From positions 1 to 33,947 of the forward strand of contig JACPMU010000044.1 in the NCBI GenBank assembly GCA_016185865.1: a stretch of 33,947 nucleotides of DNA, written 5' to 3'. Both the position numbers and the translations under genes were made by a program. Positions within the stretch are counted from its first letter, which is position 1. The number at the start of each line of letters is the position of its first letter. Positions 1 to 31,898 of this stretch are shown piece by piece. The stretch is from Candidatus Woesearchaeota archaeon. Lineage in GTDB: Archaea > Nanobdellota > Nanobdellia > Woesearchaeales > GW2011-AR4. Below the pieces are notes generated by a model. That model saw nothing but the letters and a program-made list of their open reading frames with translations. It was not told the DNA's origin and searched no databases.

Positions 1-878
1 AATGTGTCATTTGCAATTATCCTGAAGCTTACATTCCTGCCTTCGAAGCTATTATGCCCTTTGGGTATTGGGAATGAAAAGTTTGTCCAGCCTCCGTTAC
101 CTTGCCCTCCGGTTCCGTTTACAGCTGTTATATTCAAAGTTTGCCAAGCGCCAGCGCCATCACTAGCTGATTGATTAAAAAACTGCAACAAGCCATATCT
201 TGCAGCAGTAAGGTTATCGGTCCAGTTTGCTGTACCAAATAATCTTCCGGTGTTTGCATTTCCTTGGGCTCTTGAAATTCCGTCGGTTGCTCCCAATTCG
301 TACCCATCGCCTCCTGCATCACCTGATAGATTGATACGGCTTGTGTTGGTAAAGTTGTAATAAACAAATACTGGAGGCAACTGGTCAACTCTAATTGTTA
401 TTGAGCCAAATGTTGCATTAACTGGATTGCTGTTGTTGCTTGCGTCTCTTGCAGTGACATTAACCACATATGTGCCATTTGAAAATGCAAATGTGACATT
501 ACATGATACAGAGGTTGTATTTTCAGGGCTCACTGAATCAGAACTTGTGCATGTTAAGCTTGTTGAGGCACTATTTGTATAATTAATCAGTGTCTTTAGA
601 AGCGCTGATTCATAGATACTAACGTTAATCGAGGCATTAAGGCTCAAATTAAGCCCTGTTGAATTTATGTCATCCAAGGTGAAGCTTATGCTATTCGACG
701 CTGTTGTAGTATTAAAATTATTGGATAAAGGCGAATTGTATGTCACATTTATCAGTGAGCGGTCAGCTCCTCCTAATCCTCCTGAGAAATGGTCAACAAA
801 TAGATATGTATAGCCTGCCTTCAAGGCTGCTGTGTTTATTGTTCCTGATGCCGTTACAGTACATCTTCTTTGTATATC
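1..878 (-). CDS. Partial ORF running off the left edge: N-X-S/T-rich extracellular protein segment. Probably the C-terminal continuation of 793..2133 in a different frame.
   Basis: Hand translation of the minus strand. The frame with codon starts at 878, 875, ... is stop-free from 878 to the window edge (about 292 codons). It has no ATG and reads DIQRRCTVTASGTINTAALKAGYTYLFVDHFSGGLGGADRSLINVTYN.... About 24 N-X-S/T sequons by hand count. It is absent from the supplied track because it has no stop inside the window. Confidence 0.6.
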
Positions 879-2133
879 CTATGCCGCCCAACTGCAATAT
901 TCCGTACAGGTAAGACACCTCGCTTGGTATAAAGCTTGCAATATCCGCCCATGCCATCTGCGCGCTAAATCCTGTTCCTAATTGCTGCCTGACTTCTCTA
1001 GTTGGCGTGTTATTAACTTTTGAGTTGCTTGCATTTTCAAATTGGCTTGCATCAATGCTGCCGGCAACAATATGCACTATAATATCATTGGAAATATTGA
1101 TAATGAAAGTGAAATTCTTATGAGTCAGTCCATCAACTGTTACCCCATTTATAGGATTCATAAATGTGTCTTGCGGTATCTCTGAGCCGTTGCCAAGGGT
1201 TATGTTTAAGCCACCAAATGCTACCCCAAGAGTATCCCCATCAGCACTTTTTTGCTGCATTGTGGTAAATATAAGCTCCATCTGGGTTATATTCATGCCC
1301 ATTATAATGAAATCGCTGCGATTAGTGCAGGTTTTTCTTCCTATAGAGTCATTTGCGCAGAAGAATACGCTATGGGGGCCTGGGCTTGTGAAGCTGCTGT
1401 TAAAGTTCATTATACCGGACAAATTGAAGTAATATTGTCTTTGGCCTGGGTTATATATCGTCCCTGCTGTCATTGAACGGTTTACGCTTTCATTTTTTCC
1501 ACTAGCAGGAGCCTGGGGAGTTATAGAGGCATTATCGTTCAGTATCATCCATACAGTGACTGTTGTATTATCAGAGACATTAACGTATAAAGTGGCTGTT
1601 TCATAAGAGGTTATGTTGTAGGATGTAGCATCAGCCAATACTCCTCCTTTTGGGCTGTCCAAAGTCAACGCTGGTGCAATAGTATCAATAATTAATGTCC
1701 TGTTTGTTGTAAAGTTAAGTGCGCCAGCTGGAGCTGAAGTGTTTTGGCATCCAACAGCCCAAGTAAAATTGCCGTCTGAATCAAAAGTCAAGTTTAGGAC
1801 ACTTGATGTTGACGATGAATTATAGACAGCGCCTTGCGTATTATTTGTCCCGTTTTTTATAGCTTCTGCCCATACTCCTGTTATGTTTGTCCAAATACTG
1901 CAATTACCTTGAGTATTCTCACCCCCACCAATCCAAATAACTGTAAATGTAAAGTTAATTGTTCTTGTGCCATTAACCACTCCAGTCAAAGGAGCTTGTT
2001 GGGTTATTGTTACTGCATTTACAAAAAGCAGGCTTAAAACAAAAATCAAAACTATGGAGAACAGCAGTGCTAAGTTTACCTTGCCTTCTTGAGAATTAAA
2101 ATGAATAGCATCCTCTTTTTTACTCATCATCAC
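793..2133 (-). CDS. Secreted or membrane-anchored surface protein, extremely rich in N-glycosylation sequons (N-terminal part).
   Basis: 446-aa ORF. N-terminal hydrophobic segment (LALLFSIVLIFVLSLLFVNAV). About 29 N-X-S/T sequons by hand count. SD-like GAGGAGTG lies just upstream of ATGATGATG (2131..2133 region). No enzyme motifs. Confidence 0.8.
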   Translation of the reverse strand: MMMSKKEDAIHFNSQEGKVNLALLFSIVLIFVLSLLFVNAVTITQQAPLTGVVNGTRTINFTFTVIWIGGGENTQGNCSIWTNITGVWAEAIKNGTNNTQGAVYNSSSTSSVLNLTFDSDGNFTWAVGCQNTSAPAGALNFTTNRTLIIDTIAPALTLDSPKGGVLADATSYNITSYETATLYVNVSDNTTVTVWMILNDNASITPQAPASGKNESVNRSMTAGTIYNPGQRQYYFNLSGIMNFNSSFTSPGPHSVFFCANDSIGRKTCTNRSDFIIMGMNITQMELIFTTMQQKSADGDTLGVAFGGLNITLGNGSEIPQDTFMNPINGVTVDGLTHKNFTFIINISNDIIVHIVAGSIDASQFENASNSKVNNTPTREVRQQLGTGFSAQMAWADIASFIPSEVSYLYGILQLGGIGYTKKMYCNGIRNNKHSSLEGRLYISIC

Positions 2134-2372
2134 TCCTCTTTATGTGGCAAAATAATAAAGGTTATGAGTTTGGCAGCATATATTTAAACCTTTTGATTTA
2201 GGATATATGCTTTATATATAAAAGTTTTGGCTTATTTCAAAATTTAAAACACCAAGCCCCCTTTGAATTTCCAAAAATCAGATAATATTTAAACTTTTCG
2301 TTATATTGTATATACTGCAATGCATATGTTTAACAAAATATTTTTATAAGCATGCTTTTATCAAATTTTAAG

Positions 2373-2717
2373 ATGCTGGTCAGGAATGCAACAAAAAAAA
2401 GGGTAATCGCCGATAATGCCAGGCTCTGCAATGATATTTTTTCAAAATTTATAGGTTTGATGTTGTCAAAAAAGCACAGCAAAACGCTGATTTTCAAGTT
2501 CAATGAGGAAAAAACAATTTCACTGCACATGTTTTTCGTTTTTTATCCCATAGATGTCTTGTTTCTCGGCAAAAACAAGATTGTTGTGGATAAAAAAGAA
2601 AATTTCAAGCCATTCAGATTCTATAAATCAAAAAGAAAAGCAATGTACGCAATTGAACTTCCTAATGGAACAATTAAAAAAACAAAGACAAGTAAAGGCG
2701 ATAATATCAAGTTTTGA
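2373..2717 (+). CDS. DUF192-family small protein.
   Basis: Pattern A.....R..GLM....... then F.F......HM....P(I/L)D(V/I)(L/I)F, then AxxxxELP.G, as expected for DUF192. The track ORF starts at 2352. ATG 2373 sits about 27 nt downstream of a TTTTTATAA box (2341..2349), so I prefer it. Confidence 0.65.
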   Translation: MLVRNATKKRVIADNARLCNDIFSKFIGLMLSKKHSKTLIFKFNEEKTISLHMFFVFYPIDVLFLGKNKIVVDKKENFKPFRFYKSKRKAMYAIELPNGTIKKTKTSKGDNIKF

Positions 2718-3042
2718 TTTTTATTTTTTTGATAAGAATGGATATTAAACATGCCAACAGGTATATAAAAATCAAATCTAAAAGGAATGTGAGTGGATTA
2801 AGCAAAAAATTATCAATTTTGGCAAAATATTTGTCGAGAAACAATGTTTGGATGTGCGCAGCACCATCAGTATTTCCGGTTATAAAATAAGACAAAGGGA
2901 ATCCGTAGGCATTATAGCAAACAGCGAAAAATAAGCTCACTGCGCAAACATCTTCTTTTGCAAAATAAAGGAAAAAAACTGCAAGAAACAGGAATATAGC
3001 TATTTTCAAAGAAGTGGGCTTTAACAGATTTTTCAAATTCAT
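2707..3042 (-). CDS. Small hypothetical membrane protein.
   Basis: The track ORF (2707..3096) starts at TTG. The first ATG (3042) lies about 27 nt downstream of a TTTAAA box on the minus strand (around 3063..3075). Three hydrophobic segments. No recognisable family. Confidence 0.45.
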   Translation of the reverse strand: MNLKNLLKPTSLKIAIFLFLAVFFLYFAKEDVCAVSLFFAVCYNAYGFPLSYFITGNTDGAAHIQTLFLDKYFAKIDNFLLNPLTFLLDLIFIYLLACLISILIKKIKIKT

Positions 3043-3098
3043 AAAAACAGAAATGTAAAAGACATATTTAAAATTATTGAATTTTAAAAACAACAATC

Positions 3099-3275: not shown

Positions 3276-4247
3276 TTATTTTTTCCTTTTCGGCCTGTCT
3301 ATGCTTTTCAGCAATCCAAACATCGGCTTGTAGAACTCAATCAAGAAAATTATAAATAAAGAGATTAAAATCCCGCTTATGAGATAAAATTTGTAAAAAA
3401 CAAAAAATGATTTTACTTCATTCCAAAATTTATTTTCCTTCAAAACTATATCAATGTTTTTTAAATAAACGGCATCTTCAGCTAAAACACCGGCTTTATA
3501 GCAGTCGTATTTAGGCACAACCTCTATGCTTAGCCTTTTTTCTTCCTTTATTGACGGCAGATTTTTTATTGCGGCATTTACAATGACATTAAAAATGCCT
3601 TTTGCATTTGCAGGCACATCTGCATTCAGGCTGAAGTTTTGATGGTTATTTGCAGCAACAGACATAATATTTTTGTCCAAGCTTATCCAGTTTGGGCCCT
3701 TTATTCTTAATTCAACGCTAATCTCCTGCTCACCGGAATTTGTTATTTCTCCGCTATACTGCTTTTTTATGCCGCCGCAAGCCTTGTCTCTTTCTTTTTC
3801 AAGCTCCAAACTCAAAGAATAGCATCTGTTTACATTAATATTGAGGAGCAGATTTTGCCTGATGCCTTCAGAAGAGAATGCGCTTGCATCAATATAGTAA
3901 CTGCCTTTTGCATTTGCATAAGGACTTAATTCAAGAAAAACAATCCCGCTTTGATTTTTTGGCAATGAAAATTCCTTAAGATTAAAACTCAGCCAGCCAA
4001 CGCCAGATGCGCTTAAGGAATATTTATCGTCACTGCTTGCATTATTCACAACCATGATTGGTATTGTTTTTTTCTCATTTTCACAGATGTCATAAGTCCC
4101 ATTGTAGGATTCAAATTCTATTTTTTGCTCTCCATCTTTTATTTCATAAAACCTGCCGGAGAACAGCGCAAAATCCTTGGCATAAGCAAAGCTGATAAGG
4201 CATAAAAATATGGCAAAAACCGCTAAAATTTTTTTTGTTTTGTCCAT
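3276..4247 (-). CDS. Surface protein with N-terminal signal and C-terminal TM anchor; beta-sandwich (CARDB/NEW3-like) repeats.
   Basis: 323 aa. Signal-like ILAVFAIFLCLISFAYA. C-terminal hydrophobic helix followed by a basic tail (RPKRKK). Its internal pattern resembles the C-terminal half of the neighbouring 563-aa protein. Confidence 0.7.
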   Translation of the reverse strand: MDKTKKILAVFAIFLCLISFAYAKDFALFSGRFYEIKDGEQKIEFESYNGTYDICENEKKTIPIMVVNNASSDDKYSLSASGVGWLSFNLKEFSLPKNQSGIVFLELSPYANAKGSYYIDASAFSSEGIRQNLLLNINVNRCYSLSLELEKERDKACGGIKKQYSGEITNSGEQEISVELRIKGPNWISLDKNIMSVAANNHQNFSLNADVPANAKGIFNVIVNAAIKNLPSIKEEKRLSIEVVPKYDCYKAGVLAEDAVYLKNIDIVLKENKFWNEVKSFFVFYKFYLISGILISLFIIFLIEFYKPMFGLLKSIDRPKRKK

Positions 4248-4299
4248 GTGAATAGTTCCCCTAGGATGAACTAAACTAGATAAAAAAGAACAAGTAGAA

Positions 4300-5991
4300 T
4301 CAGTAATAATAAGGTTCGCTTTCTACAGTTGCGATTTCCTTGTCACTTGCTTCTTCGCTGCCATTGCTCTCCATGTATTTCTTGACTCCGAAAAACAAGC
4401 CTATTGCAGCAAGGAAAATGACAGTTAATATCAATACCACTTCCAAAGCGTCCTTTAGCTTTGCAGCCAGAAGCCCTTTTGCAGCAACAACGTTCCCCTT
4501 TAGGGGAATCTGCTTCAAAACCCCGTCATTGGTTTTTATTGTGACTAAAAATATCTGCTCGCCAGCTGCATCCGCATTTGTCGAGGCAAAAATATTCATT
4601 GTCTTTGACTCTTTTGGCTTCAATATAAATGTATTTGACTCGCTTAATCTTAAATCAGCCCAGCTAGCGCCGTCCATCAATAGCGTGTACGCATTTGCAT
4701 CAGGCCCTTCATTTGTAAGTGTGATTGGATAGATAACTTCGCTGCCGTCGTTATAGATATCCTGCTTTATTACCGGAATGTTGATGACAAGCTTGTCATT
4801 GACTATCTGCAGGCTCTGCTCATCTTTGCCAAGAACAAAAACAGGCATTTCCTTGACTTCGCTGTCGCCTCCAAACTGCGAAACAATTTCCGACCTCAAA
4901 GTATATGTTCCTGTCGGCGTGCTGTCCAAAATTTTCAGCACGAAGTCCTCGCTTACTTCTGAAAGCCCGCTGTTTTTTATTCTGTCAGCAAATTTTGTTG
5001 ATGATATTCCAAGCTCCGGAATGCTTACTTTCGCATTTATGCCCTCAAGAGGAACAACTCCGCTGTTTTTGAAGCTTAGCCTTGCAATGAGATTTTTGCC
5101 TGCTTCTCCATTCTCTGGCATTAATTCAACGCTGCTTATTACAAACGGGAACTTCTTCTGGCTTATCTTTAATCCATATAATTTTTCCTCTGAATCGCCT
5201 TCAGCATCAGTGACCTTCACCTTGAGCCTGAAGCTGTTCTGCTCAAATTTGCTGATTAAAGGCAGCTCAAGATCCTTTACTGCATTTTCCCCGTCTGCAA
5301 TGTCAAATGTCAAGGTTGCGTCTGCAACAACATCGCCGTTTTCAAAAGCAAGCACAGCATCAACATGCGCATCTTCAATATCCGAAAGCGATGTAAGCCT
5401 GACTTTCAAATCAAGCTCCCTTTCACCCTTGTCAATGATTACAAAATTATTTTCATTCTCTGCAAGCGCATTGCCTTCCAGCTGCACGCTGTCTATTGAA
5501 ACATCAAGCTGCTCTGCGCCTCTTGCGCCAGCGCCTCCGCCTCCTGCGCCTGTAAACTTTATTCCATAGGATTTCTGCTCTATTCCACCCTCAACATCAA
5601 CAATCCTTATTTCAAGCCTGAAGTCTTTTTGCCTTTTAAGAAAATCAATTAGCTTGAGGTTCAAAGCCACCAGAGTGCTCTGGTTTGTCCTCAATGTAAA
5701 AGTGCCTGTTGAGTCAGCCACTGTGTTGCCTGTGGTTAAGTCAGTCAAAATGGCTTCAACATGCATATTGCTTATGTCCTCTGTAGCAGTCAGGCTTGCC
5801 TGGATGTCAATCTCGTCCTCATCCTCAATAAAGTTTGTCCTGCCTTCAGCAAGGGACTTGCCGTTTGCCTTTACCCTGTCTATAGAAACATCTGATGCAT
5901 CTCCAAAAACATCTGCGGCAATGGCAACAGAGCTGAATAAACCTATTAATACAAGCAAAAAGGCTCCCAAAACAATGATTTTCTTGTTCAT
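4300..5991 (-). CDS. Surface (S-layer-like) protein with a tandemly duplicated domain, CARDB-like domain and C-terminal TM anchor.
   Basis: 563 aa. Signal peptide ...SSVAIAADV. Two 113-aa homologous domains (aa 34-146 and 163-275) joined by a Gly-rich linker GAGGGGAGARG. C-terminal TM helix and acidic tail. SD-like GGGGGT upstream. Confidence 0.8.
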   Translation of the reverse strand: MNKKIIVLGAFLLVLIGLFSSVAIAADVFGDASDVSIDRVKANGKSLAEGRTNFIEDEDEIDIQASLTATEDISNMHVEAILTDLTTGNTVADSTGTFTLRTNQSTLVALNLKLIDFLKRQKDFRLEIRIVDVEGGIEQKSYGIKFTGAGGGGAGARGAEQLDVSIDSVQLEGNALAENENNFVIIDKGERELDLKVRLTSLSDIEDAHVDAVLAFENGDVVADATLTFDIADGENAVKDLELPLISKFEQNSFRLKVKVTDAEGDSEEKLYGLKISQKKFPFVISSVELMPENGEAGKNLIARLSFKNSGVVPLEGINAKVSIPELGISSTKFADRIKNSGLSEVSEDFVLKILDSTPTGTYTLRSEIVSQFGGDSEVKEMPVFVLGKDEQSLQIVNDKLVINIPVIKQDIYNDGSEVIYPITLTNEGPDANAYTLLMDGASWADLRLSESNTFILKPKESKTMNIFASTNADAAGEQIFLVTIKTNDGVLKQIPLKGNVVAAKGLLAAKLKDALEVVLILTVIFLAAIGLFFGVKKYMESNGSEEASDKEIATVESEPYYY

Positions 5992-6102
5992 TAATAACCC
6001 CCAAATTACCTAAGCAGATGGGAGTACATACCCCTTTTTAAAGTTTTCGTTATTGAGGAGTAGGTACAAAATCAGCTATATTTAAGCGTAGCTGGCATTA
6101 GC

Positions 6103-6111
6103 TATTTAAAC
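6103..6111 (+). promoter_or_regulatory. TATA box for 6133..7224.
   Basis: TATTTAAAC centred about 26 nt upstream of ATG 6133, implying a leaderless or near-leaderless mRNA. Confidence 0.45.
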
Positions 6112-6132
6112 CATAAATAATCCCCAAAATCC

Positions 6133-7224
6133 ATGATAACCATAGTCGGGGCTGGCCCTGCAGGCTCTTATCTCGCGTATTTATTGGCAAAGCAGGGCAA
6201 AGAAGTTATAATTCTTGAAGAGCACAGCCAGGTTGGGGCGCCTGTCCAATGCACTGGCATTGTCACCCATTCAATTGAGAAGTTCTTCAGGCTAAAGAAT
6301 GAAGTCATAGCAAAGAGGCTTGACAAGGTTGTTGTTGTCAGCAAGAATAACAGGATAACGGTCAATGTTGATGAGATTGTGATGTGGCGCGATAAATTTG
6401 ACAGGTTTGTGGCTGAAATGGCACAGGAGGCAGGGGCTGAAATATCATTAAACCACAAGTTTATCGGATTTGAGGGAAAAAACATAATAATCATTAAAGA
6501 TAAAAAAAACAACAAGACAAAAAAAATAAAAACAGATGCTGTTGTTGGAGCTGACGGCCCTTACTCTGCTGTTGCAAACGCAGCCAGCATGAATTCGCAT
6601 CCAAAAAACTACATAGGAATGCAGGCAAAGGTAAGGCTTGCAATTGACACAACAGCGTTTGAAACTCATTTTGGAAGTGATTTTCCGGATTTTTTCGGCT
6701 GGTGTGTTCCAGAATCTGATGATATAGTAAGGCTTGGCATCGGCTGCTTTGAAAATGCCCAGGAGCATTTCTACAGGTTCTTAAAAAGCAGAACCGGAAA
6801 AAAGGATGTTTTATGCTGGGAATCTGGATTGATACCGTTATACAGCCCGAAAAAAATCATACAAAAAGGCAATGTCTATCTGATCGGGGATGCTGCTTCC
6901 CAAGTCAAGGCAACAACAGGAGGGGGGATAATTCCCTCTCTTAAGGCAGCGCATACATTGTGCGACTGCATCAACAACAATAAAGACTACAACAGAGAAT
7001 TCAAAAAGCAGTCTGGAAAGGAGCTTCTTTTGCATCTTAGAATAAGAAACATTTTAAACAAGTTCTCTGACAATGATTATGACAAGCTGCTTAATCTGAT
7101 GAGCCAGGAAAAGGTAAGGAAAATACTGAAAAAATATGACAGAGACACTCCAATACCCCTGGTTGCCAATCTGTTATTTAAAGAGCCAAGATTCCTGTTG
7201 TTTTCAAAAATGATTTTTGCCTGA
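6133..7224 (+). CDS. Geranylgeranyl reductase family FAD-dependent oxidoreductase.
   Basis: N-terminal dinucleotide fold IVGAGPAGSYLAYLLAKQGKEVIILEE. Downstream GADGPYSAV and the motif GDAASQVKATTGGGI, typical of GGR-family enzymes. 363 aa. Confidence 0.8.
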   Translation: MITIVGAGPAGSYLAYLLAKQGKEVIILEEHSQVGAPVQCTGIVTHSIEKFFRLKNEVIAKRLDKVVVVSKNNRITVNVDEIVMWRDKFDRFVAEMAQEAGAEISLNHKFIGFEGKNIIIIKDKKNNKTKKIKTDAVVGADGPYSAVANAASMNSHPKNYIGMQAKVRLAIDTTAFETHFGSDFPDFFGWCVPESDDIVRLGIGCFENAQEHFYRFLKSRTGKKDVLCWESGLIPLYSPKKIIQKGNVYLIGDAASQVKATTGGGIIPSLKAAHTLCDCINNNKDYNREFKKQSGKELLLHLRIRNILNKFSDNDYDKLLNLMSQEKVRKILKKYDRDTPIPLVANLLFKEPRFLLFSKMIFA

Positions 7225-7286
7225 TTTTTGTGTAACAAAAGCTTTTTAAAACACGCTCTTTACCTTGTTAGAGGTGGTCACAACTT

Positions 7287-10200
7287 ATGGATTCAAAAGA
7301 AGACGAAGAGATATCTATTGACTTTGGCAAGATTAAAAAATTCTTCAAGAGCGATAAGAAAGAAGAAGACAAGAGTGTAGATGAAACTTCTGCAAAAACA
7401 GAGAAGGAAGATGATGAAATATCTATCGACTTTGGAAAAATAAAAAATTTCTTCAAGAGCGATAAGAAAGAGGAGAAAACGGAAGAAGAAGCTGAAAAAA
7501 AGGAAGATGACGAGATATCTATAGACTTTGGCAAGATTAAAAAATTTTTAAAATCCGGTGAAAAGGAAGCTGGAAATGCAGATGGTGATATAACAATAGA
7601 ATGGGGCAAAATTGGTGATTTCTTCAAAAAATACGGCGTTGTTTTCATTGCATTGATTCCTATAATCCTTTCAATCTACGTCAGAATGCAGGCCGGATTA
7701 CTGCCCATAACTGATGACTGGGCTGCAAACAGCGTGATAAATGGAATTAAATCTCAAATAAGGTCTTCGATTGACCAGCAATATCCCAATCTGCCTGATG
7801 CAAACAAAAATGCCCTTGTTGATACCGAGTTGCAGAAGATTTTAACCCAAAACAAAGCGCAAATTGATCAGCAGATAAAAGCCACCTCGCAGTACTTTAA
7901 ATCATTTTATCAAGACGAAAACGGAAAGAACTACATGCCGGACATTGATCCTTATTACTGGCTCAGGTATGCAGAAAATATTGTTGAGCATGGGCATCCT
8001 GGCGATGTATTAAAGGACGGAAGACCCTTTGATAACTACCAATTGGCTCCTATGGGCAGGTTTGTAGTGCCTGATATGTTTCATTCGTATTCATGGGCTT
8101 ATTTTCACAAATTTTTGCGTTTTATTATGCCTGACTTAACATTAATACATTCTGGGTTTTATCTCACTATTTTTATTTCAGCATTATGTGTTTTGCTAGT
8201 ATTCCTGATTGCAAGAAAAATTGCCGGCAATATCGGAGGATTTTTTGCGGGATTAATAATGGCTGTAAATGGCGCATTCTTATCAAGGTCATTGCACCCG
8301 GACAATGATATATGGGTCATCTTCTTTCCTTTGCTGATTACTTGGTTATTTTTAGTCATCATAGATATTAATAACATCATAAAAATAATATTTTTTACTG
8401 TACTTGCTGGATTTTTTACCGGATTATATACTCGCGCTTGGGCTGGCTGGTGGCATATATTTAACTTTTTATTAGTAACCATGCTGATTGAATTAATGTA
8501 TTTAGCATCAATTAATTTTACCATCAAAAAGGATTTAAGATTTATCTTTTCCAATTTAACTATCAGAAATCTTATCATTATCTTTGTGGTTTATTTCCTA
8601 TCAACAGCTATTTTCATAACTATATTTTCAGCTTGGCATATATTTATAGGCGGCTTCCTTGGACCATTAAGCTTTCCCTCAATTAAATCGCCCGTAGAGT
8701 CGTCATTATGGCCAAATGTGCTTACAACCGTTGCTGAATTAAATGAAGGTTCAATCAACAATATTATAAACTCTGTAGGAGGCCCATTTCTTTTTTTCAT
8801 AAGCCTGCTGGGTCTGATTCTGGCAATATCCAGAAGAGAAGGGCTAAAGAAATTTGATTTTTTTTATATAACTGGCACGTTCATTTTTTATGGTGCGTAC
8901 TTTTTATTTAGAAGGGTCGGATTTGACATATCTGTTTTTGGTTTGTTGATTTGGATAATGCTCCCGATTTTTATAAGAATTGGCATTTCAGTCTACAAAA
9001 AAGATTCGTCCTACGATTTCAAGCTTTCTATACTATTGTCTTTGTGGACTGCATCAACTATTTTTGCCGGAATTAAAGGCATTCGATTCACCTTATTGCT
9101 GGCCCCTGCATTTAGCGTAGCGTTTGGAGTTGCCCTTGGAAAAATCTATGTTTATTTATCAAGTGTGTTGAACAAAGAGCTCAAAATTCATAAAATTATA
9201 AGCAGTGTCATTTTGATTGCGTTACTGCTTTTGATGTACGCTAATCCTATCAGGGGCGCTGTCAGCAGTGCCGGAGCTGACATACCTATCATCAATGACG
9301 CATGGTATAGCGCCTTAGCTGCGATAAAACAAAACTCCAGCGAGAATGCAATCATTACTTCCTGGTGGGATTTTGGTCATCACTTCAAGGCTTTAGCCAA
9401 TAGACGAGTGACCTTTGATGGAACTACTCAAACTTCTGCAGCTGCCCACTGGGTTGGAAGATTGTTAATGACCAGTAACGAATCAGAGGCCATAGCTATT
9501 TTAAGGATGCTAGACTGTGGAAGTAACAACGCTTTTAGCGCTTTAGACGATGTAAATAAGGATACTCATTTATCATTGAGAATATTAAACCAAATTATGT
9601 TACTGGATAATAGAGATGCAGAAAAAAAGTTAAAAGCTCTCAAGTTTAATGAAGAGCAAATTGAAAAAATTCTTTCTTTCACGCACTGCGAGCCGCCGGA
9701 AGCTTATTTCATAGCCTCAGAAGATATGATCGGAAAGAGCGGCGTGTGGAGCCATTTTGGCAGCTGGAATTTTGAAAGGGCTGACATATGGCAAATTGCC
9801 AGAAAAATGACTAAAGATGACGCAATAGATTATATGGCAAAAAAATTCAACTATACAAAAGAAAGGGCTGAAAACACTTATTTTGAGGTACAGGCAATAT
9901 CGAGCGACAGCGAGGCCAATTCATGGGTTGCTCCATGGCCGGGTTATGGAGGCACTACCAGCTGCAGCAAAAATGCCCAAGAGGTTTATGTTTGCGGCAA
10001 CGGCCTTCAGGTAAATCTAAGCAACTACGATGTCTTTGGAATCGGCCAGCAAGGCATTGTAAGGCCCAAAGCAGCTGCATTCACAACCGAAGACGGTATT
10101 TTTAAGAAAGAATTTAATGGATCTTCTCTTGACTTTGGCGTAACTATCATCCCTAAAAATGAGAACGAGCTTGATGTAATTGTATCGAGCAAAGAATTAA

Positions 10201-10436
10201 CAGGAGGCATGTTTACGAGAATGTTTTACATGCAGGGGCATGGGCTCAGGTATTTCAAGCTGTTTAATAATCAGCGCGGATTAACAGGAACAAATATCTA
10301 TGTTTACAAAGTGGACTGGCAAGGCAAAAATCCGGCTATTGTTGATGATTATGTGAATATCCTGAAAGGCCCGGCCAAGGAAGAAGATGCGGCTGAAATC
10401 ATAAACCAGACACAAAACGATACAAATAGTTCCTAA
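7287..10436 (+). CDS. aglB: Archaeal oligosaccharyltransferase AglB (STT3 family) with a repeat-bearing N-terminal extension.
   Basis: 1049 aa with many TM helices. First-loop motif DIDPYYWLRY. Catalytic WWDFG at nt 9363..9377. Large C-terminal soluble domain. SD GAGGTGGT at 7271..7278. Confidence 0.9.
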   Translation: MDSKEDEEISIDFGKIKKFFKSDKKEEDKSVDETSAKTEKEDDEISIDFGKIKNFFKSDKKEEKTEEEAEKKEDDEISIDFGKIKKFLKSGEKEAGNADGDITIEWGKIGDFFKKYGVVFIALIPIILSIYVRMQAGLLPITDDWAANSVINGIKSQIRSSIDQQYPNLPDANKNALVDTELQKILTQNKAQIDQQIKATSQYFKSFYQDENGKNYMPDIDPYYWLRYAENIVEHGHPGDVLKDGRPFDNYQLAPMGRFVVPDMFHSYSWAYFHKFLRFIMPDLTLIHSGFYLTIFISALCVLLVFLIARKIAGNIGGFFAGLIMAVNGAFLSRSLHPDNDIWVIFFPLLITWLFLVIIDINNIIKIIFFTVLAGFFTGLYTRAWAGWWHIFNFLLVTMLIELMYLASINFTIKKDLRFIFSNLTIRNLIIIFVVYFLSTAIFITIFSAWHIFIGGFLGPLSFPSIKSPVESSLWPNVLTTVAELNEGSINNIINSVGGPFLFFISLLGLILAISRREGLKKFDFFYITGTFIFYGAYFLFRRVGFDISVFGLLIWIMLPIFIRIGISVYKKDSSYDFKLSILLSLWTASTIFAGIKGIRFTLLLAPAFSVAFGVALGKIYVYLSSVLNKELKIHKIISSVILIALLLLMYANPIRGAVSSAGADIPIINDAWYSALAAIKQNSSENAIITSWWDFGHHFKALANRRVTFDGTTQTSAAAHWVGRLLMTSNESEAIAILRMLDCGSNNAFSALDDVNKDTHLSLRILNQIMLLDNRDAEKKLKALKFNEEQIEKILSFTHCEPPEAYFIASEDMIGKSGVWSHFGSWNFERADIWQIARKMTKDDAIDYMAKKFNYTKERAENTYFEVQAISSDSEANSWVAPWPGYGGTTSCSKNAQEVYVCGNGLQVNLSNYDVFGIGQQGIVRPKAAAFTTEDGIFKKEFNGSSLDFGVTIIPKNENELDVIVSSKELTGGMFTRMFYMQGHGLRYFKLFNNQRGLTGTNIYVYKVDWQGKNPAIVDDYVNILKGPAKEEDAAEIINQTQNDTNSS
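7299..7632 (+). repeat. In-frame tandem repeat inside the aglB 5' end: three good copies plus one degenerate copy.
   Basis: Core GA(G/A)ATATCTAT(T/C/A)GACTTTGG(C/A)AA(G/A)AT(T/A)AAAAA.TT starts at 7308, 7416 and 7512 (periods 108 and 96 nt). It encodes (D/E)EISIDFGKIK(K/N)F(F/L)KS.... A degenerate fourth copy (ITIEWGKIGDFFKKY) lies at about 7587..7632, just before TM1. Confidence 0.9.
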
Positions 10437-11105
10437 ATGAAAATAAGCGATGTATGGGCTGTGATACCTGCCCGCAACGAGCAGAAGAATATTGCAGATG
10501 TAATAAAGAAGACGAAGAGATATGTAGGCAATGTTGTAATTGTTGATGACGGCAGCACCGACAGCACAAGAGAGTTTGCTGAAAAATCAGGCGCTATTGT
10601 GCTTGGGCATATAGTAAACCTTGGCAAGGGAGCAGCCCTGAAAACCGGATGTGATTATGCTTTCAAGAACGGCGCTAAATATGTAATTGTCCTGGATGCC
10701 GACTCCCAGCATAAGCCGGAAGACATACCGCGGTTTATCGGGAAACTGCAGAAATATGATATAGTTTTCAGCTATAGAAAAGCAAGCGGCAAAATGCCGA
10801 TAGTGCTTCGCTTCGGAAATTGGTTTATATCCAATGTTGTAAAGGTTTTGTATGGCATCGGGCTGAATGACACCCAATGCGGGTTCCGCGCTTTTTCAAA
10901 AGAAGCCTACAAGAAAATCAGGTGGAATGCATCGGATTATTCGATGGAATCTGAAATGATTTCAAGGGCAGGAAAGCAAAGCTTAAAATATGTGCAGATT
11001 CCCATCCAAACAATATACTCTGACAAGTACAAAGGCACTACGATATTAGATGGCATGAGAATAGTCACAAATATGTTTTGGTGGAAATTATTTAATAATA
11101 AGTAA
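10437..11105 (+). CDS. GT2-family glycosyltransferase (polyprenyl-phosphate sugar synthase-like).
   Basis: VIPARNEQKNI...VVIVDDGSTDST...LGKGAALKTG...VLDADSQH motifs. The ATG directly abuts the aglB TAA. Confidence 0.85.
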   Translation: MKISDVWAVIPARNEQKNIADVIKKTKRYVGNVVIVDDGSTDSTREFAEKSGAIVLGHIVNLGKGAALKTGCDYAFKNGAKYVIVLDADSQHKPEDIPRFIGKLQKYDIVFSYRKASGKMPIVLRFGNWFISNVVKVLYGIGLNDTQCGFRAFSKEAYKKIRWNASDYSMESEMISRAGKQSLKYVQIPIQTIYSDKYKGTTILDGMRIVTNMFWWKLFNNK

Positions 11106-11106
11106 A

Positions 11107-11439
11107 ATGGTACTGGGAATTCAGATAGCTGGAATTTTATTCGGATTGTTCATGATTTATTACTCCTTTCTGAACTACAAGAGGAAGGAATTCAGCTCAA
11201 AAGAAATATTCTTCTGGTCAGTAGTATGGATATTGTTTATTGCAATATCATTATTCCCGAATATCCTGGATCCGATAGTCAAAATAGGGGGGTTTTTAAG
11301 GGCTCTTGACTTGCTTATCATAAGCGGCTTTCTTTTCCTGATTGCAGCCATTTTCTATACGTATACTGTCACAAGAAAAGTGCAGAAAAAGCTTGAAACA
11401 GTAGTTCGGGACGTTGCAATGAGAAAGTACAGGAAATGA
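11107..11439 (+). CDS. Small 3-4 TM membrane protein, DUF2304-like GT2 partner.
   Basis: 110 aa. Starts 2 nt after the GT2 stop. The layout (hydrophobic N-terminus, ...LDLLIISGFLFLIAAIFYTY..., then a charged C-terminal helix) matches my memory of DUF2304 proteins that accompany GT2 genes. Confidence 0.55.
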   Translation: MVLGIQIAGILFGLFMIYYSFLNYKRKEFSSKEIFFWSVVWILFIAISLFPNILDPIVKIGGFLRALDLLIISGFLFLIAAIFYTYTVTRKVQKKLETVVRDVAMRKYRK

Positions 11440-11466
11440 CGCTTTTCTGACAGTATTTAAACAATA

Positions 11467-11474
11467 TTTAAATA
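11467..11474 (+). promoter_or_regulatory. TATA box for the GT9 gene.
   Basis: TTTAAATA centred about 27 nt upstream of ATG 11497. Confidence 0.45.
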
Positions 11475-11496
11475 ATGTATATTGTTACTTCTGGCT

Positions 11497-12636
11497 ATGG
11501 TAGTTATAATTAAATTTATTGACAAATACGTAGGGAATTTTGTGTGTAATTTTCTTGGCTTGTTCAAGGGAAAGAGGAATGGCGACAAGCCGAAAATTGA
11601 TAAAATACTGATTGTGCAGCTTTGGGGCATAGGGGAGACAATTTTAACGCTGCCTGCCATTGAAGCCCTCAAAGCTAAATTCCCCCATGCAGAGATGGAT
11701 GTCTTGGCCACGCCAAGAAACAAGGATGTTTATTTTAACAATAAAAGCATGGATTCTATTATCCCAATAAAATTAAACCCGTTTTCCATTGCATTGTTTA
11801 TTCTGAAGAATATTAAAAAATATGATTTGGCCATAGACATGGAGGAGTATCTTAATATTTCAGCGGTAATTTCATTTTGTGTGGGCAAAAAAATTGTTGG
11901 GTATTCTCATGGCGCAAGGGCAAAATTGTATGACGTAAAAATAAGATATAATGACAGGCAGCATGCTGTACAGACATTTCTCGATTTAGTGAGGTCTCTG
12001 GGGATTGACTACAATTTTGAGAAATTGCCAAAACTGAATTTCTCCAGGAATGACAAGAATTTTGTTGATAAGTTTTTGAAGAATAATGGAATCAAACGCA
12101 ATGATTTTGCTGTCTGCGTTGCTCCAGGAGCTGCAGAGTCCGCAAAAGCAAGAATGTGGCCTTATAAAAGATATGCTGAATTGTGCGAGGAGCTGATTGC
12201 CAAAAACAATGCCAAGGTAATTTTTGTCGGCAATTCTGATGAAATTCAGCTGATTGAAAGCATACAAAAAAGTATTGAAAAAAAGGACAAAACAATAAAC
12301 ACGGCTGGAAAAATAACTCTTAACCAGCTGTTTTATTTGATAAGCAGGTGCAGGCTTTTCATCGGCAATGACGCAGGACCTATGCACATAGCAGCAGCCC
12401 AGAGCATTAAAACATTGGGATTATTTGGCCCCAATCTGCCGGTAAGGTTTGGGCCTTATGGAAAAGGCAATATTGGACTGTACAAAGGGTATAACTGCGA
12501 ATTCAGCCCGTGCATTAATGTCCATAAAGGCCAGGTTCCGGATTGTTTGTACCCAAAAAACAGCAATGATTACCAGAAATGCATGAAAAACATAAGCGTT
12601 GACGATGTGCTGAAGGAAATTGAGAAGATAACCTAG
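11497..12636 (+). CDS. GT9-family glycosyltransferase (ADP-heptose-dependent heptosyltransferase-like).
   Basis: KILIVQLWGIGETILTLPAIEALKAKFPHAEMDVLA near the N-terminus and FIGNDAGPMHIAAAQSIKTLGLFGP near the C-terminus are classic GT9 signatures. The track start 11482 is TTG; ATG 11497 fits the TATA spacing. Confidence 0.8.
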   Translation: MVVIIKFIDKYVGNFVCNFLGLFKGKRNGDKPKIDKILIVQLWGIGETILTLPAIEALKAKFPHAEMDVLATPRNKDVYFNNKSMDSIIPIKLNPFSIALFILKNIKKYDLAIDMEEYLNISAVISFCVGKKIVGYSHGARAKLYDVKIRYNDRQHAVQTFLDLVRSLGIDYNFEKLPKLNFSRNDKNFVDKFLKNNGIKRNDFAVCVAPGAAESAKARMWPYKRYAELCEELIAKNNAKVIFVGNSDEIQLIESIQKSIEKKDKTINTAGKITLNQLFYLISRCRLFIGNDAGPMHIAAAQSIKTLGLFGPNLPVRFGPYGKGNIGLYKGYNCEFSPCINVHKGQVPDCLYPKNSNDYQKCMKNISVDDVLKEIEKIT

Positions 12637-29841: not shown

Positions 29842-30179
29842 TTAATTTTTAATTTGTACTTTTTTAATGCGAATGCCATAAGCATAAGAGCCAAAAATGT
29901 GAGTATAATTGCTATCCTGAAAGATATCAAAAGCCCAAGAATGTAGACTAAAGAAGGAAATATTGTAAGTCCCAGCAAAATAGCAAAAATAAGTTTTTCA
30001 CTTTCGGAAATTTCAAATTTGCTAAGCATGATATAAAATGGAAGCGATATAAAAATAAGCCCAAAAATGATACGAAGCCCAGTTATGCCAAACAGCACAA
30101 ACGAGAAAACTATTATTGTTGAGAATACCAGTGACAAAAATACAACAAACATTTTGAACTCATCGCTCTTTGCTTTCAA
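29838..30179 (-). CDS. Small 3-4 TM membrane protein, paralog of 29464..29841.
   Basis: 113 aa. ATGA overlap with the upstream 30176..30949 ORF. Convergent with its paralog, sharing the overlapping-stop tetranucleotide TTAA at 29838..29841. Confidence 0.55.
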   Translation of the reverse strand: MKAKSDEFKMFVVFLSLVFSTIIVFSFVLFGITGLRIIFGLIFISLPFYIMLSKFEISESEKLIFAILLGLTIFPSLVYILGLLISFRIAIILTFLALMLMAFALKKYKLKIN

Positions 30180-30949
30180 GGTTTATACACCCTTATGTTA
30201 TCTTTGCCATAAGCCAATGAATGGTTGGCTAAAGCATTTTTTTCAAACAGCTGCATTTTATTAAAAGTTTCTTTGTCATTTAAGGGGCCCAGCATTGTGT
30301 AGTCCAGCATGATATACCAGTCCCTTGATTTCAAGATTTTGTCCTTGTCTTCACGCAGAAAGTAAAATCTGGTTACATGCTGCGACACTGCAGCAAACCA
30401 TCTGATCTTTTTTGACGTTACAGACAGCACATTGTCAGGAGTGTAAGGTATACCTAAAACTGTAATGTTAGCAGAGGCAGGAACATTTTCAAGAATCCAC
30501 TGCGCTGCTTGATATTCCTGCTCATTTAATGTGCCAAAAAAATCATTATAGGTATTTTTATTCAGTATTTTTGAAGCACTTGCCATATTTACTGATAATG
30601 CAAAATAAACAAAAATGGTAGCGACTCCATATTTCAAAAATTTATTATAGTTTGATGAAAGCTTTAGAAAAGAGCCTAGATAGACAGCTCCTATCGCCGT
30701 TAAGGGCGCAAATATGTGGGCGGTAGCTGACAATGATCTGTGCAAAAATGAAGCTTTTCCTATGAAGTCCCTATGAAGAACAAGGTACAAGCCTATAAGC
30801 CATGCCATTAAAAGCAAGTCCTTTTCTTCCCTTCGCAGCGCTATAAATAATGTGCCGAGCAGCAAAAATGGCAATGTCCACAAGCCATGCATCTCCTTGA
30901 AAGAGAAGTAGCTTGGAGGCACGCTCCCGGCAAAATCTTTTGGGTCCAT
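30176..30949 (-). CDS. C-terminal half of a GT-C-like membrane protein (paralog of the C-terminal half of 27852..29498).
   Basis: 257 aa: TM helices, then a soluble domain with EQEYQAAQWILENVPASANI, matching DDYHWSALKWLSGNAEHDSKI in the paralog. In frame with 30995..31792 and separated from it only by TAG plus 15 sense codons. Confidence 0.6.
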   Translation of the reverse strand: MDPKDFAGSVPPSYFSFKEMHGLWTLPFLLLGTLFIALRREEKDLLLMAWLIGLYLVLHRDFIGKASFLHRSLSATAHIFAPLTAIGAVYLGSFLKLSSNYNKFLKYGVATIFVYFALSVNMASASKILNKNTYNDFFGTLNEQEYQAAQWILENVPASANITVLGIPYTPDNVLSVTSKKIRWFAAVSQHVTRFYFLREDKDKILKSRDWYIMLDYTMLGPLNDKETFNKMQLFEKNALANHSLAYGKDNIRVYKP

Positions 30950-30994
30950 GGACCACTTAAGCAGCCTGGATAGGTCTATATTTTTTCGGGCCTG

Positions 30995-31792
30995 CTAATT
31001 GTCCTCAGTTTTTTTAATGCCAATCTCTGGAAAAATATTCAGCGTTTGATACGGAAATGCCATGAACATGGCTAAGAAGATTATTGCTGCTGTTAAAGTG
31101 TGCTTCCAATTAAAAACAAATTTTTTTTGTTTTAAAGACAAAAGAATGTAAAGTACTATCAGCCCGAAAACAGCATGGAAAAAAGAAAGCGGATGTATAA
31201 GAAAGGAGATACCCGAAAGCATGGCAGTCAGATAAAGATATAGCGGTTTATTATCATTATTTGAAAATTCTATAAAATACTTATAAAAACAATATAAAAT
31301 CAGAGGCACAAATGAGTATCCAAATCTCTCAGGCCATTGCCCCCAAAGGTACGGCATAAAATCCCTTGGTGAAAATATTATCAACAATGAAGAAAGAATG
31401 GCTGGCAAAAACCCGAATAATGAGTTTACAACAAAATACAGGGTTATTATAACAAATGTTGCCATTATTGTATTTAAAAGGAATATCGGCAAAAATCTGT
31501 CTCCCCCTAATATCTGCATAACTCCCAAAGAAGCGTGGAATGGAGGGGCATACCACAAAGTATGGGGTTTGAACTTATTATCGTAACCATACCTTAAGTC
31601 TATGTAAGGCGGCAAATATACGATTGATTTGTCATTAAACGCCATGTAGTCTCCAACTTCAAAATGCGACATCGCATCGTATTCTCCATAAGGTATTTTT
31701 CTTTCATGATAAGGCTGCGACCAGAAATAAATTGCAAATAGGTACACCAAAACGAAGATAAATGTTTGGATATAGTTTTTGCTTAATTTCAT
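30995..31792 (-). CDS. N-terminal half of a GT-C-like membrane protein (paralog of the N-terminal half of 27852..29498).
   Basis: 265 aa. The DAMSH, WGQWP and LIHPL motifs align with DAFQH, WGHWP and ILSHT of the plus-strand paralog. Ends at TAG 30995..30997. Confidence 0.6.
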   Translation of the reverse strand: MKLSKNYIQTFIFVLVYLFAIYFWSQPYHERKIPYGEYDAMSHFEVGDYMAFNDKSIVYLPPYIDLRYGYDNKFKPHTLWYAPPFHASLGVMQILGGDRFLPIFLLNTIMATFVIITLYFVVNSLFGFLPAILSSLLIIFSPRDFMPYLWGQWPERFGYSFVPLILYCFYKYFIEFSNNDNKPLYLYLTAMLSGISFLIHPLSFFHAVFGLIVLYILLSLKQKKFVFNWKHTLTAAIIFLAMFMAFPYQTLNIFPEIGIKKTEDN

Positions 31793-31898
31793 ATTGATAT
31801 GTCAAATAAACTGATTTATAAACATTTGTTATGGGCAGATAATCTAAACAGATATCAGACTGCATATTTTATCTATATCTAACTTATCTACCGCAACC

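Follow-up and report, generated by a model that had tools for sequence, protein, structure and literature searches.

The window analysed here, 33,947 nucleotides in length, is an entire contig from the draft genome of a tiny groundwater archaeon of the Woesearchaeota. One end of it carries two overlapping minus-strand reading frames, followed by small conserved genes, a pair of surface-protein genes, an oxidoreductase gene and a gene for the oligosaccharyltransferase AglB (Table 1). ORF A (793..2133) has 446 aa if read from the GTG at 2133, with ATG codons at 2130 and 2127 in the same start region, and opens with a charged head and a 20-residue hydrophobic stretch (LALLFSIVLIFVLSLLFVNA). From 878, directly downstream of a TAG at 879-881, frame B stays open to position 3; since the window is the entire contig, the frame ends there at the contig end and not at a gene end. 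It comprises 292 codons, none of them Met. Both frames are open across 796..878, an overlap of 83 nt. A sequence-only reading of this DNA had described this arrangement, and its counts of 29 and 24 N-X-S/T sequons for ORF A and frame B, respectively, proved to be correct.

By residue shuffling, 8.6 ± 2.5 sequons are expected for ORF A and 8.2 ± 2.4 for frame B. The excess, about 3-fold for the glycoprotein gene, corresponds to z = 8.0 and 6.7, respectively, and none of 5000 shuffles reaches the observed count. Among the 569 ORFs with 200 aa or more that the organism's own genome contains, with a median of 0.44 sequons per 100 aa, ORF A, frame B and the continuation of the gene on a second contig, C4, occupy the first three ranks by sequon density. 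The neighbouring surface proteins, which show weak FixG_C Ig-like matches, are indeed sequon-poor, as had been noted earlier: 3276..4247 has 4 sequons and 4300..5991 has 2.

Table 1. Features of the glycoprotein-aglB locus (coordinates refer to the window unless marked C4)
Feature	Coordinates	Strand	Description
Contig end	1..2		Gene resumes, after ~20 codons, at the end of C4 in the same assembly
Piece B	3..848	-	282 codons, +1 frame, SGTINTAALKAGYTYLFVDHFSGG...FRIIANDT; truncated by the contig end
Out-of-frame tail of ORF A	793..849	-	IRNNKHSSLEGRLYISIC, then TGA at 793-795; without counterpart among the homologs
Upstream extension of frame B	849..878	-	DIQRRCTVTA; chance-open, homologous to nothing
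Piece A	850..2133	-	First 428 codons; signal/anchor helix and sequon-dense ectodomain modules; ends ...GYTKKMYCNG
Conserved small gene	2352..2717	+	121 aa; divergent from the glycoprotein gene; 58-69% identity, same place in 8 congener loci
Small conserved membrane protein	2707..3096	-	Syntenic in 8 congener loci
Two surface proteins	3276..5991	-	Signal peptide, Ig-like region, C-terminal TM helix; syntenic in congeners
FAD-dependent geranylgeranyl-reductase-like oxidoreductase	6133..7224	+	Pfam FAD_binding_3, E 4e-17
AglB/STT3 oligosaccharyltransferase	7272..10433	+	1054 aa, intact; Pfam STT3, E 4.9e-34
Gene continuation	C4:5478 down to 2541	-	Found by tblastn of full-length homologs against the genome; ORFs and alignments

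One gene lacking about 110 nucleotides

Judged from comparison with homologous sequences, ORF A and frame B are pieces of one large, sequon-dense gene for a predicted surface protein of Woesearchaeota (DPANN). Alignment of homologs, proposed earlier as a check, shows the two to be contiguous in a single ORF: in eight congeners, single ORFs of 1,680-1,844 aa match A and B consecutively. Piece A (residues 1-428/432) is 62-65% identical to the N-termini of congener ORFs of 1,680-1,766 aa, and piece B is 53-62% identical to residues ~466-775 of the same ORFs. At least eight Woesearchaeota genomes of the same genus show the one-ORF arrangement, as do about 30 full-length proteins in the database. 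The latter represent the long form of the family (~1,690-1,840 aa) among 49 database homologs of 960-1,842 aa, and several long-form proteins bear the NCBI name "PGF-pre-PGF domain-containing protein".

On C4, synteny with the congeners extends past the continuation to the genes that follow it. The frame is shifted a second time there, by a 5-nt deletion near C4:3370; beyond this lesion lie the PGF-pre-PGF domain, an acidic double-disulfide repeat pair and the C-terminal TM anchor. The domain thus lies outside the window, on the C4 piece, where the TIGR04213 (PGF_pre_PGF) match scores 94.6 bits (E 5.5e-27; curated cut-off 28 bits); the corresponding scores in the homologs are 92.6-97.9 bits. 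All four pieces, A and B in the window and C and D on C4, are collinear with the long-form family, in order, at 47-70% identity. The long-form family has an uninterrupted frame, whereas the present copy is broken at window position 849, at C4 ~3370 and by the contig break. Positions 3..2133 of the minus strand represent the first ~710 codons of one gene of ~1,700 aa, and its product would be a genus-conserved, membrane-anchored and extremely sequon-dense envelope glycoprotein. A signal/anchor helix leads into a long ectodomain with one N-X-S/T per ~15 residues, and an Ala/Gly/Thr linker, a sequon-free PGF-pre-PGF domain and a TM helix with a basic tail complete the protein.

Nucleotide alignment with eight congeners, together with protein alignments, shows that about 110 nt (3n+2) of the long-form homologs are absent at 849/850 on the minus strand. 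Frame-A homology stops at MYCNG and frame-B matches begin at residue 10-11 in every congener; the earlier view of an out-of-frame end to ORF A and a native frame B turned out to be right, the native part of A extending to MYCNG and that of B starting at SGTIN. The gap is flanked by GGC (Gly428, 850-852) and A (849) on one side and by TCA (Ser11, 846-848) on the other, base 849 being a lone leftover base at the deletion junction. The missing part encodes ~37 aa, roughly TTVNDPQCHSISQCNSSVFGIYNDTLAIPTNNACWLE, with three invariant Cys, and the family-invariant residues gone at the junction are P, C, C, N, N and C. In 29 of 29 distinct long-form homologs, the interval from YCNG to FTYIFVDHFS comprises 49-61 aa with exactly three Cys; in the window it is 12 aa long with zero Cys. 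The same 29 of 29 homologs contain a four-Cys segment, YCNG-x7-C-x5-C-x~20-C, between ectodomain modules 2 and 3, and only its first Cys is kept in the window. The incomplete four-Cys segment is the lesion itself, not counter-evidence to common descent. The loss of ~110 nt at this point shifts the frame, and in the draft the gene cannot be read as one protein.

Recoding, separate genes or damage

The doubly open overlap of 83 nt is the sole support for a functional fusion made by programmed +1 ribosomal frameshifting, or by slippage in transcription, within 796..878, and we consider such an event very improbable. The sequence-only reading had supposed that one indel, or a frameshift on the ribosome, would join the frames into a protein of more than 700 aa. 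The native protein, of ~1,700 aa in full, is not recovered in this way: with the 110-nt segment absent, a 1-nt shift yields a protein that lacks a family-invariant element. The slippery site that had been envisaged in the overlap was not found there, as it contains no homopolymer of at least 4, no X XXY YYZ heptamer and no rare codon; AGG is common in the genome (3055 AGG vs. 2368 AGA in long ORFs). A single-base indel is excluded by the gap in the alignment and by the absent homopolymer. Homology changes frame at one exact point (849) with the conserved residues gone, none of the ~40 homologs examined needs a frameshift, all complete orthologs being single ORFs, and the frame break 2.5 kb further on would demand a second programmed event. 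Two true separate genes, the second starting from TTG 824..822, are even harder to credit. Frame B does contain this TTG and the public annotation evidently calls products of 444 aa and 274 aa, but piece B lacks a separate signal peptide and its homology begins at 848, upstream of the TTG. A second gene with its own start and signal peptide, which the earlier reading had named as the result that would speak against a single gene, was seen in no homolog. For annotation, this means that the two public products are fragments of one ~1,700-codon gene that spans a second contig, and are neither two proteins nor a case of recoding.

As to the cause of the damage, a real and recent pseudogene, with the coat glycoprotein lost by a 110-nt out-of-frame deletion and then by a 5-nt deletion, has a substantial chance of being correct, somewhat short of even. 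Two independent 3n+2 out-of-frame deletions in one gene are a classic mark of a real pseudogene, and a clean 110-nt loss is a rare error for short-read assemblers. The junction has no flanking repeats of at least 20 nt able to mislead a de Bruijn assembler, which rules out a repeat-mediated assembler jump. Since the remaining ~20 orthologous genes of the contig are intact, errors are not widespread and do not look like random noise. On the same contig, a membrane protein gene (30179..31801) has an in-frame TAG at 30995-30997 that is absent from all matching congeners (matches in 26 of 30, unbroken, ~22 of these being full-length ORFs of 527-604 aa), a hint that genes are truly decaying in this genome; under the pseudogene reading, linked functions may also be shed. 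Against this stands the state of the pieces downstream of the lesions, which show no further decay. The ~1,260 codons downstream of the lesion have zero stops in their native frames, and relaxed constraint downstream of the first lesion is not seen, which fits only a very recent event. Of 152 positions that are invariant across 23 homologs, the four pieces together retain 151, among them 43 of 43 Asn and 15 of 15 Cys; this suggests that the lesions either arose very recently or are artefacts of a MAG that is scaffolded (N-runs of 2-83), in 104 contigs and 69% complete. The gene is present in 19 of 24 congeners searched and missing only from incomplete genomes, which argues for its importance. 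It is also a hot spot of assembly failure: contigs end inside it in the present genome and in three other MAGs, and N-gaps lie inside it in two more. Identity to one congener, G013, is 47-49% for the glycoprotein N-terminus vs. 78-90% for the flanking genes, which suggests a fast-evolving and probably strain-polymorphic gene.

Taken together, it appears a little more probable than improbable that the lesions do not represent the population's working gene, that they stem from a scaffolding or assembly error or from a minority variant, and that the organism makes an intact protein. Such a variant would come from a low-quality, strain-heterogeneous region. The whole of this preferred explanation, namely one AglB-linked glycoprotein gene with lesions that are likely non-representative and no recoding, stands at about an even chance. 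The broader proposal that a natural Woesearchaeota population has very recently knocked out both the AglB-linked coat glycoprotein, by two deletions, and a polytopic membrane protein of the same island, by the TAG, is more doubtful and can be offered only tentatively. If the lesions are real, they would constitute a natural experiment indicating that the coat protein is dispensable or switched off in some episymbiont lineages. Being damaged, the copy in the window contributes little by itself. No second copy of the same population emerged from the searches carried out: by exact look-up both products are singletons, full-length and junction-centred protein searches gave best matches of only 59% and 69% identity, respectively, and in a JGI metagenome scan the best match was only 57% identical.

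In the two assemblies with N-gaps, apparent breaks sit at the N-run scaffold gaps and are thus uninformative about frame breaks in the family. One congener, G015, may also have a frame break in the glycoprotein gene. Genome-wide, the present assembly has 55 same-frame ORF pairs split by one stop, a figure that is non-discriminating in such a compact genome.

Linkage to AglB and related surface glycoproteins

The AglB gene and the glycoprotein gene lie within 5-15 kb of each other on the same contig in at least eight congeners, in the conserved order AglB-GGR-surface-surface-TM-small-glycoprotein. The oxidoreductase between the surface genes and aglB is syntenic in the congeners at 76-90% identity, and the window AglB aligns over its full length to that of G013 with 80% identity. 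This conserved linkage can be regarded as established, as can the existence of a single gene and the nature and position of its lesions. The glycoprotein had been proposed as the dedicated major substrate of AglB. The genus-conserved linkage makes a major client plausible but does not extend to "dedicated", as several further large ORFs of the genome are rich in sequons too. Of the proteins considered, the glycoprotein would be the most plausible bulk client of this AglB, the two genes being 5 kb apart.

Sequon density is uniform among the homologs (6.2-7.3 per 100 aa). The present copy has 108 sequons; in an alignment with 23 homologs, 87 of them fall at columns where 50% or more of the homologs have a sequon, and 60 where 90% or more do. 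The family product is accordingly predicted, on sequence grounds, to be glycosylated and probably serves in the envelope. Genus-wide conservation, tight aglB linkage and about one sequon per 15 residues, mostly at conserved positions, make the family a good candidate for the S-layer or other envelope protein in this genus of Woesearchaeota. A PDB sequence search returned nothing better than E 0.038, and a Pfam search gave zero S-layer families and only sub-threshold Ig-like matches (PKD_4, Big_13, DUF4625). AlphaFold2 models had a mean pLDDT of 36.8 for the N-terminal piece of the present copy (9 sequences) and 41.2 for the junction region of a homolog (12 sequences), values that make them unusable for a fold search.

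We regard the gene as encoding an already known kind of DPANN surface glycoprotein, and this copy of it as broken or mis-assembled. The closest counterparts are the Woesearchaeota proteins annotated as PGF-pre-PGF domain-containing, e.g., those of 1,726 aa (JAGVYA010000021.1, RIFCSPLOWO2_01_FULL_35_20) and 1,677 aa (JACPMT010000064.1). They share with the present gene the N-terminal signal/anchor, the invariant Cys and Asn positions, the sequon density, the PGF-pre-PGF domain, the TM anchor and a neighbourhood that includes AglB. In contrast to them, the present copy lacks the 37-aa three-Cys segment, is frame-shifted twice, is distributed over two contigs and has the acidic double-disulfide repeat pair as an extra element in its C-terminal piece.

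The PGF-pre-PGF domain family was defined around Haloferax-type archaeal surface proteins. The Haloferax volcanii S-layer glycoprotein and the PGF-CTERM archaeosortase substrates are alike in having a Thr/Pro/Ala-rich linker before a C-terminal hydrophobic anchor. Unlike theirs, the C-terminus of the Woesearchaeota family is a plain TM helix with a KKK tail and no PGF motif, and the window AglB scores 54.5 bits against the archaeosortase-associated STT3 subfamily, for which the cut-off is 450.

SlaA of Sulfolobus acidocaldarius is likewise a large archaeal envelope glycoprotein; it is the main client of an AglB that is essential, and is considered densely glycosylated (PMC2948927, PMC10903991). 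With 31 sequons in a mature protein of ~1,400 aa (PMC2948927), SlaA has ~2 per 100 aa. On this benchmark the Woesearchaeota family, with 6-8 per 100 aa, is ~3 times denser. SlaA has no sequence similarity to the family (no PDB match) and is anchored via SlaB, whereas the Woesearchaeota proteins would be held by their own TM helix. Multi-sequon Ig-fold surface or putative S-layer proteins are also described in cultivated DPANN archaea, namely Nanobdella aerobiophila MJ1_0160 and MJ1_0299/0309/0707, Nanoarchaeum NEQ300 and Micrarchaeum Micr_00292 (bioRxiv 10.1101/2023.10.27.564410). By description they resemble the present family as large secreted proteins rich in beta structure, with numerous sites for N-glycosylation, a C-terminal TM helix and a host that has aglB; they have 13-52 predicted sites as compared to 108-133 in the Woesearchaeota family.

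One sequon-rich gene in four pieces

ORF A and frame B, the two frames at window 1..2133, come from a draft genome (GCA_016185865.1) of 866 kb in 104 contigs, with 39% G+C and an estimated completeness of 69%; the window makes up one entire contig, C102. The wealth of N-X-S/T sequons noticed in the sequence-only reading is confirmed, and it is far beyond chance: residue shuffling predicts 8.6 +/- 2.5 sites for A (z = 8.0) and 8.2 +/- 2.4 for B (z = 6.7), and the remaining long ORFs of the window carry 0-1.1 sequons per 100 aa. The low counts noticed in the two neighbouring surface proteins hold as well.

Features of the glycoprotein locus and of the TAG-split gene
Feature	Position	Strand	Description
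ORF A	793..2133	minus	446 aa from GTG; 29 sequons
Frame B	878 to contig edge	minus	open for 292 codons, no Met codon; 24 sequons
Overlap	796..878	minus	frames of ORF A and B both open
Neighbouring surface proteins	3276..5991	minus	4 and 2 sequons
aglB	7272..10433	plus	oligosaccharyltransferase gene
Polytopic (GT-C-like) membrane protein gene	30179..31801	minus	one in-frame TAG at 30995-30997
Acidic double-disulfide repeats (outside window)	contig C4, 2640-2830	minus	two copies, C-x-D-x2-D-N-D-x-D-G-L-V-D-S-A-D-x-D-C

A and B had also been taken for parts of one protein, and the related genomes bear this out. When each was used as a separate query against 40 of them, both matched within one open frame in G003, G004, G011, G016, G017, G020, G021 and G022, where A lies directly upstream of B in a single ORF of 1,680-1,844 aa. 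A database search yielded 49 homologs of 960-1,842 aa, about 30 being the full-length long form (roughly 1,690-1,840 aa); those that bear a name are called "PGF-pre-PGF domain-containing protein". The alternative, a second gene with its own start and signal peptide, is seen in none of the homologs, neither feature being present at the A/B junction. By these matches, A and B are a single gene.

Full-length homologs also match a second contig of the genome, C4, from its very end (5478) downward. About 20 codons are absent between the window and C4 (...FRIIANDT before the gap, TVPA... after it), and the downstream genes on C4 are those found downstream of the gene in congeners. C4 holds a second frame break, a 5-nt deletion at ...NGTFNF/(TT)SAAAA..., where an Ala/Gly linker begins; its last piece carries a PGF-pre-PGF domain (94.6 bits) and the two acidic repeats, followed by a TM helix with a basic tail. 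Conceptual read-through of the whole gene yields a protein of about 1,690 residues, in which there are 108 sequons.

The lesion at 849/850 and its origin

The sequence-only reading proposed that a single indel or a ribosomal frameshift would fuse the two frames; the alignments show a larger lesion instead. According to protein and nucleotide alignments with homologs, frame A homology stops exactly at ...KKMYCNG (Gly428 is GGC at 850-852) and frame B homology starts at SGTIN... (TCA at 846-848), leaving the single base 849 between them. Every long-form homolog has 37-49 extra residues here. The stretch from YCNG to FTYIFVDHFS measures 49-61 aa and always includes three cysteines (29 distinct sequences), vs. 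12 aa and zero cysteines in the window. With G017 as the reference, the gap amounts to 110 nt (3n+2). By this comparison, the lesion is a deletion that removes a family-invariant element, probably disulfide-bonded, and shifts the frame; since that element is lost, neither a one-base correction nor a +1 ribosomal shift would restore the native protein. Programmed frameshifting was rejected also because the overlap contains neither a run of four or more identical bases nor a slippery heptamer, and AGG codons are not rare in this genome. Any explanation with recoding or two genes is highly improbable.

Neither the protein collection nor the JGI contigs yielded a near-identical sequence of the same population. 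There is an even chance that the lesions are an artefact or a minority variant. The assembly is fragmented and scaffolded, with N-runs of 2-83 nt, and the glycoprotein gene is a recurrent trouble spot of metagenome-assembled genomes: contigs end inside it in G000 (the genome studied here), G008, G013 and G014, and N-gaps lie inside it in G009 and L033. Identity to G013, the closest relative, is 47-49% at the glycoprotein N-terminus (window 1..2133) vs. 78-90% in the flanking genes (3276..12633), and it is in regions of this kind that assemblies are broken by strain variation. The low identity itself suggests that the exposed end of the protein evolves fast or recombines.

A recent pseudogene fixed in the population is the less favoured reading, yet a serious contender. 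Two independent out-of-frame deletions affect one gene, no repeat was found that could mislead the assembler, the contig's remaining ~20 orthologous genes are free of lesions, and another gene of the contig, the membrane protein gene, is interrupted by an in-frame TAG. However, of 152 residues invariant in 23 full-length homologs, 151 are kept across all four pieces (43/43 Asn, 15/15 Cys), the only invariant positions lost being those within the 110-nt deletion or between the two contigs, and the native frames of the pieces contain no stop codons. Hence either any inactivation happened very recently or the organism itself does not carry the lesions. Whether they are real is where the remaining interest of the window copy lies.

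Architecture and relation to AglB

The protein begins with a charged head and a 20-residue hydrophobic helix with a V-x-A-like end site (signal peptide or N-terminal anchor). The ectodomain of roughly 1,400 residues contains conserved pairs of Cys, and a sequon occurs about every 15 residues; it is followed by a low-complexity linker, the sequon-free PGF-pre-PGF domain, a Pro/Ala/Glu-rich stalk and finally the TM helix with its KKK tail. Of the 108 sequons, 87 occupy alignment columns where at least 50% of the 23 homologs also have a sequon, and for 60 this share is at least 90%. Density across homologs is uniform (6.2-7.3 per 100 aa), and by these data the sites themselves are under selection. 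The acidic repeats (NF033662, 60.5 bits) form an insert that follows the PGF-pre-PGF domain and precedes the TM anchor; the eight aligned congeners lack it.

A short form of the family, of about 1,300-1,500 aa (L043, L046, L048 and L049, from G009, G010, G006 and G001) lacks long-form residues ~165-495; the missing block ends exactly at the four-cysteine segment, to which the YCNG Cys and the three Cys lost at 849/850 belong and which thus marks a module boundary. Some orthologs (L017 at G017:C57 12480-12687; P0008, P0009, P0017, P0031, P0034) have the tandem motif ...AFAIIDMIRDFYAGTSKLTAFDIIDQIRSFYGG in place of the C-terminal stalk and TM anchor and are devoid of a TM helix, which suggests alternative, non-covalent anchoring. 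Pfam and PDB searches linked the protein to none of the known S-layer proteins, and AF2 models were not usable.

The gene had been proposed as the dedicated major substrate of AglB. Its linkage to aglB stands: the two share a contig, 5-15 kb apart, in at least eight congeners. Conserved, too, is the arrangement of the genes from aglB through the FAD oxidoreductase, the two sequon-poor surface proteins, a small TM protein and a small protein to the giant glycoprotein. "Dedicated" does not stand; further large ORFs rich in sequons occur in the genome, e.g., on contig C83 (2,229 aa with 75 sites; 2,310 aa with 72). From its sites and its gene neighbourhood, we infer a putative heavily N-glycosylated envelope protein and putative major AglB client, and a reasonable candidate for the S-layer or coat protein of the genus. 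G020 has two tandem aglB copies (G020:C36:7628-13993), 56-57% identical to the window AglB, one with an internal TGA.

The family is already annotated in NCBI, though uncharacterised. The copy in the window thus belongs to a known kind of protein and is either damaged or mis-assembled. Large, Ig-rich, multi-sequon, TM-anchored surface proteins have been described in cultivated DPANN archaea (bioRxiv 10.1101/2023.10.27.564410). The sequon density is ~3x that of SlaA from S. acidocaldarius, a protein with 31 sites (PMC2948927).

The TAG-split membrane protein gene

A search of 30 genomes of the same genus matched this gene in 26, where it is unbroken (~22 full-length ORFs of 527-604 aa), the closer full-length orthologs having 60-80% identity. 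The TAG divides it into 268 + 272 codons and aligns to a variable loop, where G014 has Ala.
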